From the NCBI GenBank assembly GCA_013166835.1, contig JABLTI010000047.1:1-38398 (forward strand): a stretch of DNA of 38,398 nucleotides, written 5' to 3'. The notes beneath the pieces were generated by a model, which saw only the letters and a program-made list of their open reading frames with translations, searched no databases and was not told where the DNA came from. Shown in pieces: positions 34,009-38,398 of the stretch; the first letter of the stretch is position 1; each line of letters starts with the position of its first letter. Made by a program: the position numbers and the translations under genes. The DNA is from Promethearchaeati archaeon (GTDB lineage Archaea; Asgardarchaeota; Heimdallarchaeia; JABLTI01).

Positions 34009-35781
34009 ATGTGTGGTATAATAGGTTACATTGGTAAAAAAAGAGCTGCACCCATTTTATTTGATTCATTAAAGAAATTGGAATATCGGGGTTATGACAG
34101 TGTTGGTATAGCATCAATAAATGGTGATGCTGAGATTGAAATAAAAAAAGGAGCCGGGAGAATAGAGGCTGTTAATGAACGAATGAACTTCCTATCTGTA
34201 AATGGTTCTATTGGTATTGGTCATACTCGCTGGGCCACTCATGGAGGAGTGGAGGACAAAAATGCGCATCCATTTTTATCTTGTAATGGTCGATTTGCGC
34301 TTGTTCATAATGGAATACTAGAAAACTACCTCGAGTTAAAAGAGGATCTAGTAAAGAAAGGGCATACATTTACATCTGATACAGACACTGAAATTTTGGT
34401 TCATCTAGTTGAGGAAGAGGTGAAGAATAATGGGGAAAAAGATTTAGTAAAAATAATTTCAGATTTAACAAAAATTGCTAAAGGGGCATACACTTTCTTA
34501 TTATTAGATGCTAAAGATCACATTATCTATGCTTTTAGAAAAGACTCACCAATTATTATTGGAATTGGAGAAGATGAACTGTTTGCGTCCTCTGATATTA
34601 CTTCTTTCCTGGAACATACAAACAAAGTAATTATTTTAGAAAATAATCAACTTGCTGTTCTCAAAGAAAAGTATACAATTTATGATACTCAAACAGGAAA
34701 AGAAGTAAAACAGAAAATTACAACCATTGACTGGACTACTGAACAAGCAAGTAAAACTGGTTTTCCACATTTTATGTTGAAAGAGATTTTCGAAGAAGTT
34801 GAAATATCTAAACATTCTTTGGAACAAGATTCCCTAAAGCTAAATGGTATGATAGAGGTTTTATCTAAAGCGAAGAAGGTCTTCTTCCTCGGATCAGGAA
34901 CCTCCTTTCGGGCATGTTTACTTGCTTCAATATACTTTGCTAAGATTGCAAAGAAGCATTTTATGCCAATTCTTGGGTCTGAATACAAGACATATCAGAA
35001 TCTTGTGGACAAGGACACAGTAATATTTGCGATAAGTCAAAGTGGAGAAACTGCAGACGTTCTTCAAGGTATAACTCTTGCTAAAGCAAAAGGAGCTAGA
35101 GTCGTTTCATTGATTAATGTTATTGGTAGCACAATTATGAGAGAATCAGACCAATATCTCACGTTAAATTCTGGACCCGAAATCGCAGTAGCTTCTACCA
35201 AGGCATTTATTTCACAAGTATTAATCTTGACTTTACTGGCTTTCGGAGTAGCTGATAGATTGAAAGAAGGACGAGAACACTTGTATGAAGTTGTCAGAAA
35301 ACTCGAGAGTATAATGAACCAATCGGATTCTATTGCCATGCTATCTAAAGATGTTCTCAATAAGAATGATCTCTACCTTATTGGAAGAGGAGTTTCTTTT
35401 CCGATTGCAATGGAAGGTGAACTAAAAATAAAAGAAATCGCATACATTCATGCAGATGCTCTTGCTGGTGGGGAATTAAAGCATCACACTTTAGCATTAA
35501 TAGAACCGGGTGTTACTTGCATTGCGTTAGTTCCAAATGATGATACTAAAGATGACATGATTAACAACATTATGCAGATAAAAGCTCGAGGTGGGGAGAT
35601 AATCGGAATTTCATCAGAACACTTGGAGTTATTTGACCACTATATTCCCATTCCAAAAGTTCACCTCGAACCCCTTCTAATGATTCCAGTACTACAACTT
35701 ATCTCCTACTATCTCTCTGTCATCCGCGGAAATGATCCTGACTTCCCTAGAAACCTTGCTAAATCAGTTACTGTACTCTAA
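34009..35781 (+). CDS. glmS: Glutamine--fructose-6-phosphate aminotransferase
   Basis: MCGIIG, LEYRGYDS, GHTRWATHG, HNGI, SQSGETAD, VASTKAF, PRNLAKSVTV. Confidence 0.97.
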   Translation: MCGIIGYIGKKRAAPILFDSLKKLEYRGYDSVGIASINGDAEIEIKKGAGRIEAVNERMNFLSVNGSIGIGHTRWATHGGVEDKNAHPFLSCNGRFALVHNGILENYLELKEDLVKKGHTFTSDTDTEILVHLVEEEVKNNGEKDLVKIISDLTKIAKGAYTFLLLDAKDHIIYAFRKDSPIIIGIGEDELFASSDITSFLEHTNKVIILENNQLAVLKEKYTIYDTQTGKEVKQKITTIDWTTEQASKTGFPHFMLKEIFEEVEISKHSLEQDSLKLNGMIEVLSKAKKVFFLGSGTSFRACLLASIYFAKIAKKHFMPILGSEYKTYQNLVDKDTVIFAISQSGETADVLQGITLAKAKGARVVSLINVIGSTIMRESDQYLTLNSGPEIAVASTKAFISQVLILTLLAFGVADRLKEGREHLYEVVRKLESIMNQSDSIAMLSKDVLNKNDLYLIGRGVSFPIAMEGELKIKEIAYIHADALAGGELKHHTLALIEPGVTCIALVPNDDTKDDMINNIMQIKARGGEIIGISSEHLELFDHYIPIPKVHLEPLLMIPVLQLISYYLSVIRGNDPDFPRNLAKSVTVL

Positions 35782-35907
35782 ATCATTTCTTTTTTTATCT
35801 TCTATTTTACCTATAGTCAACATATAAAATAATAAAACAAAAAAATAATATTAAACAATCAAATATTTAATTAAATGATTGTTTATTGTTTTAAATCACT
35901 GCATTCA

Positions 35908-35922
35908 CGATAAGTTTATATA
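35908..35922 (+). promoter_or_regulatory. Archaeal BRE-TATA promoter of nrdR-nrdD
   Basis: CGATAAG-TTTATATA; would put the transcription start near 35945-35950. Confidence 0.6.
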
Positions 35923-35948
35923 TAAAATGTTCTGAACTTTATATCGAT

Positions 35949-35964
35949 ATACAAGATGTTGTGT
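35949..35964. promoter_or_regulatory. NrdR box 1
   Basis: ATACAAGATGTTGTGT matches consensus acaCwAtATaTwGtgt at 13/16, with all strongly conserved positions intact. Confidence 0.75.
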
Positions 35965-35979
35965 TTAGGGGAAAAAATA

Positions 35980-35995
35980 CCACTAGGAATGGTAT
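35980..35995. promoter_or_regulatory. NrdR box 2 (degenerate)
   Basis: CCACTAGGAATGGTAT keeps caCTA…aT.Gt.t; starts 31 bp after box 1 (15-bp spacer), the usual tandem NrdR-box spacing. Confidence 0.55.
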
Positions 35996-36100
35996 GCTCT
36001 GGTTAGTACCAGAACCACTTTAAATAGCCTAGAATGGGTGCCAATCCCCGAAAAAATGACCAAAAGAGGTCAAAACAGAAATTTAGCCGGAAGAAAAACG

Positions 36101-38398
36101 ATGAAGTGCCCGTATTGTCAGTCACCAAACACTCGAGTTGTTGACAAACGATTATCTGACGACATGAAAGTAAATCGCAGAAGAAGAGAATGTCTCCAAT
36201 GTAATAAGCGATTTACCACCTACGAACGAGTAGATGATGTCAAACTTTCTGTTATCAAAAAGGATAAGAGAAGAGAACCTTTCAGTCGAGACAAAATGAA
36301 ATCCGGCATTGTTAGAGCTTGCGAGAAACGACCCATTAGCATGGAAGAAATCGATGAAATAGTAGATGAAATCGAGAGCGAACTAAGAAAATTAGAGGAA
36401 ACAGAGATTGATGCTCAAATCATCGGCGAGAAAGTAATGGAGAAACTTCGCGAACTTGATGAGGTCGCTTATATTAGATTTGCTTCTGTTTATAGACGGT
36501 TCACTGACTTAGCTTCTTTTGAAAGAGAATTAGAGAAATTGAAGGTAGTTAAAGAGATCCAAGTGAAAGGACAAGATTCCACTGAACTTCTATTATTAGT
36601 TTCAGGTGACACCAAAGAAGAAATCTCAGGGTGGAATCGAGCTAAAATCACAGCAGCATTAATCAAAGAAGCTGGATTAGAAAAAATGGATGCAGAATCA
36701 ATTGCAGCAGAAGTAGAACGCAAAATATTCGCATCTGGGATCGATGTTATTTCTGTTGATTTAATTAGAAGCTTAGTAGACAATGAACTCTTTGTAAGAG
36801 GATTTGCTACAAAACTCTTACAACAAAGAAGCATTGGTATACCAACTTATGATTTGAATCAATTAATTCATTCAAAGAGTAAAGAAAATAGCAATGTTGT
36901 AGCAAATAATCCCGAAGCAGTTAATCTAGCTATTGCTGAAACAATCTTGAAGAAATACGCTTTACAAGAAATGTTTTCTCCAGAAGTGGCAAATGCTCAT
37001 CGAAAAGGTAAGATATATTTACACGATCTTGGCTTTCCAGTCAGGGTGTATTGTTCTGCACACAGTTTGGAGTACATCAAGAAATATGGGTTAAATTTGT
37101 TGAATCTTTCAACTGTTTCAAGCCCAGCCAAACATGCAGACACACTAACAGGTCATCTCAATACGTTCCTTGCGTCAATGCAAGCCTATTATGCAGGTGC
37201 ACTAGGTCTCGCTTACCTTAACATCTTCTATGCCCCATTCTTTGTAGGGGTTCCATATGAGCAAATAAAACAAGAAGCTGTTCCAAATTATCTAAAGGAT
37301 ATTCCAGCAATCGGCCCAGGTGGAAAATACACTGGCAAAACCTATGGTGAATATGAAAAAGAAACACAACTTTTTGCTAAAGCACTCATGGATGTTTGGT
37401 TGGAAGGAGACGCTCAAGGAAAAGTCTTTCCATTTCCTAAATTTGATCTTCATATTGATCAGAGTTCCTTTGATGACAAAGAGCAATTAAAATTACTCAA
37501 GCATGCTTGTAAAATTGCCTCTGAGAATGGATCGACCTACTTCATATTTGATAGAGATGAAGTGAATCTCTCCATGTGTTGTCGATTAAAGACTACAATC
37601 AAAGACATGTATATGATCGAGCATCCTGAAAGTATGAGATATTGTGGGTTCCAAAATGTAAGCATAAATCTACCACAAGCAGCCTATCGAGCTGGCAAAG
37701 GAAAAATCAAAGACTGTATTGAAGAAATTAAAGCAGCCATGGATATAGCTATGCAAGGCCATTTAGAAAAGAAAGAATTTATCCATCAGCTCATGACTCA
37801 AGAACGAGGTACTCTCTGGCAAATAGGAAAAATTGCAGAAGATGGTAGACCTTATGTTGACTTAGAAAAGGCAACCTATATTATCGGGGTAATTGGACTC
37901 AATGAATGCGTCCAATATTTAATTGGAGAACAAATGCATGAAAGTGAGAAAGCATACAAGCTTGGATTAAGAATCATTGCAGGTATGAATCTCAAAGCAA
38001 AAGACTTACAGGAAAAGAACGGTATAACTGTAACCTTAGAAGAAACTCCAGGAGAAAGTGCCCCATACAAATTCGCAAGAACAGATATTCAAGAATACCC
38101 TGATAGCATCCATTATGTGAAAGGAGATATTGAAGAAGGAGCGATATACTATACCAATAGTGCCCACTTTGCAGCAGATGCTCAAATAGACATTATTGAT
38201 CGAATCTCCAAACAGGGTAAATTTAACACCTTAATTGAAAGTGGATCTATCACTCACATTTTCATAGGTGAACAGAAGATATCTTCTGAATCAATATTAA
38301 ATCTAGTGAAGAAAACTTGGGAAAATACCCAGAGCGCACAAATTGTTTTCTCACCAGAATTCACAGTCTGTCAAGATTGTGGAAAATTAAGTAGGGGT
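36101..38398 (+). CDS. nrdR-nrdD: NrdR repressor fused in frame to class III anaerobic ribonucleoside-triphosphate reductase; truncated by the window end (766 codons visible)
   Basis: MKCPYC…TRVVDKR…NRRRRECLQCNKRFTTYER…REPFSRDK…RACEKRPIS…LDEVAYIRFASVYRRF (NrdR); no stop; second ATP cone WNRAKI…LIRSLVDNEL; KENSN..NNPE, AHRKGKIYLHDL, VYC, PFPK, SMCCRL, QNVSINLPQ, EETPGES, YYTNS, VCQDCG (NrdD). Confidence 0.93.
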   Translation, partial: MKCPYCQSPNTRVVDKRLSDDMKVNRRRRECLQCNKRFTTYERVDDVKLSVIKKDKRREPFSRDKMKSGIVRACEKRPISMEEIDEIVDEIESELRKLEETEIDAQIIGEKVMEKLRELDEVAYIRFASVYRRFTDLASFERELEKLKVVKEIQVKGQDSTELLLLVSGDTKEEISGWNRAKITAALIKEAGLEKMDAESIAAEVERKIFASGIDVISVDLIRSLVDNELFVRGFATKLLQQRSIGIPTYDLNQLIHSKSKENSNVVANNPEAVNLAIAETILKKYALQEMFSPEVANAHRKGKIYLHDLGFPVRVYCSAHSLEYIKKYGLNLLNLSTVSSPAKHADTLTGHLNTFLASMQAYYAGALGLAYLNIFYAPFFVGVPYEQIKQEAVPNYLKDIPAIGPGGKYTGKTYGEYEKETQLFAKALMDVWLEGDAQGKVFPFPKFDLHIDQSSFDDKEQLKLLKHACKIASENGSTYFIFDRDEVNLSMCCRLKTTIKDMYMIEHPESMRYCGFQNVSINLPQAAYRAGKGKIKDCIEEIKAAMDIAMQGHLEKKEFIHQLMTQERGTLWQIGKIAEDGRPYVDLEKATYIIGVIGLNECVQYLIGEQMHESEKAYKLGLRIIAGMNLKAKDLQEKNGITVTLEETPGESAPYKFARTDIQEYPDSIHYVKGDIEEGAIYYTNSAHFAADAQIDIIDRISKQGKFNTLIESGSITHIFIGEQKISSESILNLVKKTWENTQSAQIVFSPEFTVCQDCGKLSRG

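Follow-up and report, generated by a model that had tools for sequence, protein, structure and literature searches.

NrdR is treated, in the literature available to us, as a bacterial repressor and a possible drug target, and its sites are defined relative to sigma-factor promoters. Its operator consists of two partially palindromic 16-bp boxes separated by a linker of 15-16 bp, with C4, A6, A8, T9, T11 and G13 as key positions; according to the same study, C4 and G13 are essential, the middle AT is dispensable and non-AT middles are tolerated in bacterial boxes (PMC13584703). The bacterial repressor contacts DNA as a tetramer carrying both dATP and ATP and kinks each box by ~90 degrees. In the structure of S. 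coelicolor NrdR on DNA, the residues R12, R26-29 and R37 grip the backbone, and base recognition falls to D15 and R17 (PMC9110341). The operators overlap the core promoter or the start of the RNR operon, and one box often deviates in its middle dinucleotide. The repressor gene often lies inside the operon that it regulates (PMC9110341, PMC13584703, PMC12051234). For Archaea, a 2026 paper that analysed bacterial box pairs puts NrdR in 22% of the genomes, and a 2025 preprint calls NrdR absent. In the openly searchable literature, which excludes subscription journals and supplementary files, we found no paper on NrdR-NrdD fusions or on NrdR boxes at TATA promoters.

Here, we describe an Asgard locus in which two such boxes are positioned between a TATA box and a gene encoding NrdR and the reductase NrdD in a single polypeptide. 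From the sequence and its conservation, we consider it quite probable that this is an NrdR operator built into an archaeal TATA/BRE promoter and controlling the nrdR-nrdD fusion gene, i.e., an autoregulatory arrangement.

Locus and gene neighbourhood

The window, by which we mean the whole 38,398-nt stretch of DNA analysed, is contig C115 of the source genome (G000), a metagenome-assembled genome of 3.56 Mb in 260 contigs, 84.75% complete and with 33.7% GC. A glmS-like gene ends with its stop at 35781, and a 319-bp spacer leads to the ATG of the nrdR-nrdD fusion gene at 36101. The features of this region are:

35786..35810, + strand: T-rich stretch, directly 3' of the glmS-like stop (sequence and alignment)
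35908-35922, + strand: BRE/TATA segment, reading cgataagTTTATATA
35908..35914, + strand: BRE-like A/purine-rich stretch cgataag, directly 5' of the TATA box
35915..35922, + strand: TATA box TTTATATA, invariant columns in the 7-sequence alignment
35949..35964, no strand: NrdR box 1 ATACAAGATGTTGTGT, the strong box (letters, alignment, weight matrix)
35965..35979, no strand: linker ttaggggaaaaaata, 15 bp, G-run and A-tract kept in part
35980..35995, no strand: NrdR box 2 CCACTAGGAATGGTAT, the weak box, whose middle dinucleotide is GA and not AT
35996..36100, + strand: rest of the predicted ~150-nt 5' leader (sequence, ortholog alignment)
36101..38398, + strand: nrdR-nrdD fusion gene (Pfam domains), cut by the contig end at residue 766
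36101-36226, + strand: Zn ribbon, residues 1-42 (Pfam match, PF22811)
36248-36508, + strand: ATP-cone, residues 50-136 (Pfam match)
36632-36793, + strand: second, weak ATP-cone-like domain, residues ~166-244 (25.3 bits, just under the Pfam cut-off)
From 36884, + strand: NrdD core, residue 262 onward (Pfam match)

A sequence-only reading of this DNA had already named the BRE/TATA element and both boxes, 31 bp apart from start to start, and its positions and letters for all of them were exact. No RNR gene besides the fusion was found in the genome, and the boxes are situated in the promoter region of this gene, box 1 beginning 152 bp before the ATG. The gene glmS precedes the fusion in all 10 loci of the family, the window included, and the T-rich block is kept across the 7-sequence upstream alignment (columns ~13-35); it looks like an archaeal oligo-T terminator that would separate glmS from the nrd promoter. 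In the relatives, the fusion gene is followed by a glycyl-radical ORF, a thioredoxin-like gene and nrdG. The nrdG gene of the source genome is located on a separate contig, C126, which breaks off within the thioredoxin-like gene; C115 and C126 are not joined in the assembly, so the nrdG promoter of this genome is unreadable.

Promoter and predicted leader

The motif TTTAWATA is found at a fixed position, 33-34 bp before box 1, in 10/10 orthologous promoters, window included. The TATA half of the proposed BRE/TATA element held throughout. The BRE-like stretch reads acgataag, acgatatg, acaatagg, acataaca, ccaatagt or tcataacc in the orthologs, an aCrATAnn-like pattern that is conserved in part only. 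Genome-wide, TTTAWATA upstream of long ORFs shows a weak peak 31-50 nt before the first ATG, and the exact motif occurs upstream of 130 of the 2375 ORFs of the source genome. Because of this peak close to the ATG, a promoter with a long leader housing an operator is unusual in this genome.

Archaeal TATA boxes usually have their first T at about -30, from which we infer a transcription start at about 35943-35949. Box 1 would then occupy ~+1/+4 to +16/+19 and box 2 ~+32 to +50. An SD-like GGAAG is present at 36089-36093, 7 nt before the ATG of the fusion gene, and a further TATA-like TTTAAATA is located 3' of box 2, at 36019-36026. Contigs from four RNA libraries cover parts of the fusion coding region; DNA carry-over is possible for these, and contigs cannot show starts, strand or expression level. 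None of them spans the boxes or the TATA region, an absence that carries no weight in assembled contigs. One RNA-library contig of a relative extends ~72 nt upstream of the ATG, which fits a leadered transcript and cannot place its start. Additionally, the region 35500-36400 was scanned against Rfam at E<=10 for a riboswitch in the leader; this candidate was dismissed, as the matches were at noise level only.

Boxes and chance expectation in the source genome

Box 1 has all six key positions (C4, A6, A8, T9, T11, G13; 6/6) and box 2 has four of them (C4, A6, T11, G13; 4/6), its positions 8-9 reading GA. Together with the 15-bp linker, this agrees with the earlier claim that the pair follows the rules of bacterial NrdR operators. 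The consensus NrdR box ACACWATATATWGTGT differs from box 1 at 3 positions and from box 2 at 6. Sites with <=3 mismatches are present 102 times in 3.56 Mb vs ~86 times in first-order Markov simulations, and tandem pairs (<=3 and <=6 mismatches, spacing 30-33) were observed 7 times vs 6.3 times in the simulations, i.e., there is no genome-wide excess. Within the source genome alone, the motif match is at chance level. The published search expression for box pairs, C.[AT].[AT][AT].[AT].G twice with a 20-23 nt gap (PMC13584703), does not match the window pair, as box 2 has a G at position 8; it matches the orthologous pair in 5/10 orthologs. The same expression gives 1105 matches on both strands of the source genome and, because of this number in an AT-rich genome, discriminates poorly here.

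These counts, in which the pairs equal expectation, and the weakness of box 2 are in line with another explanation, namely that the boxes are a chance resemblance, or the decaying relic of a horizontally acquired nrdR-nrdD cassette, without present function. The position of the pair speaks to the first of these: by simple arithmetic, the odds that one of 7 pairs falls in the 319-bp spacer before the only NrdR gene are ~6e-4, and when the 300 nt upstream were shuffled 200 times by dinucleotides, the observed box pair was never equalled. A weight matrix was built from the relatives only and then scanned on the source genome. Box 1 was the top single site of the genome (20.8 bits) and box 2 ranked 18th (14.5 bits). 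With thresholds of >=18 bits for the sum and >=5 for each box, only two tandem pairs were retained genome-wide, the window pair scoring 35.3 and the other one 19.4. This genome scan with an NrdR weight matrix, which the earlier reading had proposed as a check, hence placed the window pair first. What goes beyond chance is the placement and conservation of the boxes, not the motif match.

Conservation in the family

The N-terminal 200 residues of the fusion have one match each in 9/11 other genomes of the same family and none in 30 genomes of other families of the class. Among Asgard genomes as a whole, the NrdR ribbon exceeds the cut-off in 12 of 301, 10 of which belong to the window's family. 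The ten orthologs obtained in this way are kin, nine of them from one genus (g1), and do not represent ten independent observations. Both boxes are kept in all ten of their promoters, window included, with a spacing of 31 bp in nine and 32 bp in one and, correspondingly, a linker of 15 bp in nine and 16 bp in one. The sequence-only reading had suggested aligning the upstream regions of orthologous fusions and named the loss of the boxes or of their spacing as an argument against itself; the alignment came out in its favour.

Mean column identity in the 7-sequence upstream alignment is 61%, with the invariant columns concentrated in the TATA box and the two NrdR boxes. Among these seven sequences, positions 3-6, 8, 9, 11 and 13-15 of box 1 are invariant, including all six key positions, as are positions 2-4, 6, 7, 11, 13 and 14 of box 2, including C4, A6, T11 and G13, with positions 8 and 9 varying. 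The majority identity is highest in box 1 (0.93), followed by box 2 (0.81) and the linker (0.79), vs 0.60-0.64 in the flanks. Searching all 12 genomes of the family with the exact IUPAC operator pattern gave 11 sites in 10 genomes, one per fusion-bearing genome except for two in G006, and the reversed control pattern gave no match in the same 12 genomes. In the two genomes that lack the pattern, of 64% and 69% completeness, the search for an NrdR module likewise gave no match.

The linker between the boxes (35965-35979) is conserved, in its G-run and A-tract, to a degree (0.79) beyond that expected for a plain NrdR site. Just 3' of box 2, at 36001-36009, a genus-conserved GGTTAGTAC is found in 6 of the 9 g1 promoters (L003-L008), L009, L010 and L012 being without it. 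Considering the linker conservation and the single-sequence fold described below, another factor besides NrdR may act at the leader.

If transcription starts near 35946, both boxes are transcribed, and the palindromes could act as RNA hairpins in the leader, affecting stability or translation, or could be the site of a different archaeal transcription factor. The leader folded as a single sequence gives z=-2.63, with 2/200 shuffles as good, and the linker G-run and GGTTAGTAC are conserved beyond the needs of NrdR, both of which would suit such a function. However, the consensus fold of the 10 orthologs reaches only -2.95 kcal/mol with a covariation term of +0.22, which gives no support. Box positions 5 and 12 vary independently, and an A-A combination in L008 and L009 breaks the hairpin. 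The invariant positions are exactly those contacted by NrdR. Moreover, the pair co-occurs with NrdR across phyla and is not found in five nrdD promoters of genomes lacking NrdR. We consider a role at the RNA level, or of a different factor, very unlikely and retain the NrdR operator as the preferred reading.

The conservation likewise bears on the possibility of a relic. The patchy distribution of NrdR in the Asgard genomes (12/301, mostly in this family) fits acquisition by transfer and, to this extent, would be compatible with an imported cassette in decay. However, the key positions are invariant in 10 orthologs despite diverged flanks, and the boxes stay at a constant distance from the archaeal TATA box. 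A relic would drift out of register with a promoter element of the host and is disfavoured for this reason.

The eleventh operator site adds to this. It is located in G006 on contig C93 (L135:3526-3605), upstream of the thioredoxin-like gene and nrdG and after the small ORF that follows the reductase. Its layout is a T-rich stretch, TTTAAATA, 33 bp, ATACAAGATGTAGTGG, a 15-bp linker and ACACTAGAACTGGTGG, with the boxes 31 bp apart; spacer and linker have diverged, and the key box positions are kept. Five other relatives that were checked have no operator boxes before the thioredoxin-like gene and instead a spacer of ~100 nt. Because this is a second promoter-operator unit of the same geometry with diverged spacer and linker, it argues strongly, at the level of sequence, for a function as operator. 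Chance resemblance or a functionless relic appears highly improbable to us in view of these data.

Fusion protein and RNR content

In the public protein collection, the full-length fusion has 806 residues, and its close homologues, labelled by source as Heimdallarchaeota or Asgard group, are 79-85% identical. The source genome contains one match to the NrdR Zn ribbon (PF22811), which lies inside the fusion, and NrdD is the only RNR found; no catalytic subunit of a class I or II RNR was found in this 84.75% complete genome. The first 148 residues can be aligned over their full length with E. coli NrdR (9fzf; E=4e-42). The window protein carries R12, D15, R17, R26-R29, R37 and both CxxC pairs at the same numbers as S. 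coelicolor NrdR. Across 26 diverse fusions, C3, C6, R17, R27-29, C31, C34 and R37 do not vary, and D15 and R26 hardly do. The proposal that the fused NrdR domain is functional is thereby strengthened: it is the only one in the genome and has kept every DNA-contact residue.

The AlphaFold2 model (mean pLDDT 77.9, pTM 0.63) consists of the NrdR module, a low-confidence (disordered) linker at 148-163, the ATP-cone-like domain, which is folded at 166-244, and then the NrdD core. This modelled domain layout is as would be expected from a head-to-tail fusion of nrdR and nrdD, and the second, degenerate ATP-cone-like domain is probably NrdD's own former regulatory cone.

NrdD itself appears to be split in this family. 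The fusion matches only positions 1-518 of the Pfam NRDD model, and a separate ORF of 77-81 aa right after it matches positions 519-560, with a CxxC and the glycyl-radical motif SRVVGYF. Such small ORFs were seen in L106:851-1096, L107, L108, L109, L110 and L135:3175-3417; in G008, the small glycyl-radical ORF follows in frame after a TAG. The source genome, G000, has two further small ORFs of the glycyl-radical type elsewhere (C59:11491-11616 and C94:3094-3252). These small ORFs could encode a detached radical subunit or spare-part proteins.

Occurrence beyond the family

The NrdR module has 244 matches among proteins of 421-1341 residues, and in 117 of the best 120 of these long matches it is combined with an NrdD domain. 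Labels among the long NrdR-NrdD proteins include Aenigmatarchaeota, Micrarchaeia, Woesearchaeota and Bathyarchaeia. The NrdR Zn-ribbon/ATP-cone is fused to non-RNR domains as well, such as a RibD-type deaminase/reductase, PF03706 and PF01261 (P0107, P0117, P0120). In contigs representing one genome per species, true fusions were present in 4 of the 71 loci examined: one each in Nanohaloarchaeota and Woesearchaeota, one in a near-identical contig binned as Methanosarcinales and one in a bacterium. The remaining 67 loci, many of them from Planctomycetota, have a separate nrdR ORF of 145-172 aa directly before nrdD. This separate pair is likely the precursor state of the fusion. Neighbouring but unfused nrdR and nrdD genes occur commonly in bacteria and in other archaea, so that in its origin the fusion does not count as an invention of archaea. 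In the contig binned as Methanosarcinales (L042), the N-terminal sequence and the ORF length (832 aa) match those of the Woesearchaeota contig L019, and the upstream regions are closely alike.

The separate genes raise the possibility that the operator is real and its binder a free NrdR fragment, released by proteolysis of the linker or by premature termination, so that the fusion would serve only as a co-expression device. Such a fragment would resemble the stand-alone NrdR of the 67 loci outside the family, and the low-confidence linker at 148-163 between the NrdR module and the rest of the protein is a conceivable place of cleavage. Furthermore, bacterial NrdR is a tetramer of ~17-kDa chains (PMC9110341), and the fusion has ~800 residues. 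However, the frame is open through the junction in 10/10 members of the family, a conserved internal stop was not seen, and Zn ribbon, ATP-cone and NRDD occur together in the 117 long homologues mentioned above. Considering both sides, we regard the free fragment as unlikely and the full-length fusion as the preferred candidate for the binder.

To see how the boxes are distributed in Archaea, we used an archaeal set of 19 loci, comprising all 18 loci recorded as archaeal in which the match starts at residue 1, plus the window. It contains nrdR or nrdR-nrdD loci of Asgard, Nanohaloarchaeota, Woesearchaeota, Bathyarchaeia and Micrarchaeia. In 17 of the 19, the tandem pair was matched by <=5% of the shuffles, in tests made per locus and uncorrected for multiple testing, several of the loci being kin. 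Sixteen of the 19 pairs are convincing, L070 having been excluded for its 12 mismatches. Two Woesearchaeota loci with a separate nrdR (L074, L089) had no boxes according to the shuffle test. The unfused nrdD loci of NrdR-less genomes of the same class yielded 0/5 with a pair better than the shuffles (fractions 0.32-1.0). In three genomes of the class that lack NrdR (L127, L129, L139), the unfused nrdD frames are 1242-2466 aa long and the Pfam match is broken into parts, a pattern that suggests inteins.

In those archaeal loci whose upstream sequence was inspected, the boxes were always found just 3' of a TATA-like element. By eye, the distance from TATA to box 1 is ~33-34 bp in the Woesearchaeota fusions and in Nanohaloarchaeota, 24-27 bp in other Woesearchaeota and ~10-13 bp in Bathyarchaeia, and in Micrarchaeia the two elements abut. 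The distances of ~10-13, 24-27 and 33-34 bp, taken from few and related loci, are roughly one helical turn apart, and helical phasing may matter. Upstream of the Woesearchaeota-type fusions L019 and L042, an extra, distal pair of good NrdR boxes is present ~290 and ~260 nt before the start, respectively. The combination of distal and TATA-adjacent pairs resembles the distal and proximal pairs of Listeria nrdAB (PMC12051234).

To place the NrdR module phylogenetically, a tree was computed by a quick method from 59 rows and 150 columns. The six fusions of the family formed one starred clade, L058 being on a long, untrustworthy branch. The tree did not yield the donor or the direction of a transfer, as its backbone was not resolved and 28 of its 56 inner branches were open.

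Proposed mechanism

Because the genome's sole DNA-binding NrdR module forms the N terminus of the reductase, we read the arrangement as self-repression: the enzyme would probably silence its own gene once deoxynucleotides are in ample supply. Judging from the relatives, this control would extend to the glycyl-radical ORF, the thioredoxin-like gene and nrdG. Modelled on bacterial NrdR, a rise of dATP relative to ATP would cause the Zn-ribbon/ATP-cone modules to pair into their DNA-binding form, and the paired modules would occupy the two boxes, at about +1 to +50, and kink them. TBP and TFB could still occupy the TATA/BRE 33-34 bp upstream, and the recruitment or escape of RNA polymerase would be blocked. 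The data show the sequence, the conservation and geometry of the boxes, their occurrence together with NrdR and the intact contact residues; binding, nucleotide dependence, start position, repression and the full-length fusion as the active species are those elements of the scheme that we infer.

In a wider sense, we lean slightly towards the view that, in this Asgard family and some DPANN, the NrdD polypeptide itself senses dATP/ATP and represses its own gene. Such a trigger enzyme would use a bacterial-type Zn ribbon to kink the DNA at +1 to +50 on a eukaryote-like TBP/TFB/RNAP machinery, with the operator re-registered to the TATA box at 33-34 bp. If this is true, one and the same ATP-cone would govern the activity of the enzyme as well as transcription.

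Comparison with known systems

The closest described systems are the bacterial NrdR operators, such as those of the autoregulated S. coelicolor nrdRJ and of E. coli nrdAB, nrdHIEF and nrdDG, which have the same two 16-bp boxes, a linker of 15-16 bp and the same key positions (PMC9110341, PMC13584703, PMC12051234). In contrast to these, the Asgard boxes lie 33-34 bp 3' of a TATA/BRE and not over -35/-10 elements, the target is the archaeal TBP/TFB/RNAP, and the predicted repressor module is covalently part of the enzyme that it would regulate. The separate nrdR-nrdD pairs of Planctomycetota, Omnitrophota, Elusimicrobiota, Bathyarchaeia and Woesearchaeota show 26-64% protein identity to the fusion over its residues 1-~794 and share its gene order, many of them with tandem boxes upstream of nrdR, but consist of two ORFs.

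Among archaeal repressors, MDR1, LrpA and Phr occupy the start site or sequences 3' of it and thereby prevent the recruitment of RNAP. The Asgard candidate is like them in that its operator is located between the TATA box and about +20 or beyond and that binding of TBP and TFB would still be possible. Those three are winged-helix or Lrp-type proteins, whereas the Asgard candidate would act through a two-box, DNA-kinking combination of Zn ribbon and ATP-cone. Trigger enzymes such as PutA and BirA unite catalysis and the repression of their own operon in one polypeptide and respond to a metabolite of their pathway; their families and folds are unrelated to NrdR-NrdD, for which the dual role is a prediction.

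The operator is ordinary in its sequence rules and unusual in its setting: the same two-box operator would work from a different position, 3' of the TATA box, and on another kind of transcription machinery, in an archaeon closely related to eukaryotes. The example offers testable rules for how a bacterial repressor adapts to archaeal promoters after gene transfer. Compared with the known systems, it also represents a natural case in which to ask if one ATP-cone can couple the allosteric and the transcriptional control of dNTP supply.
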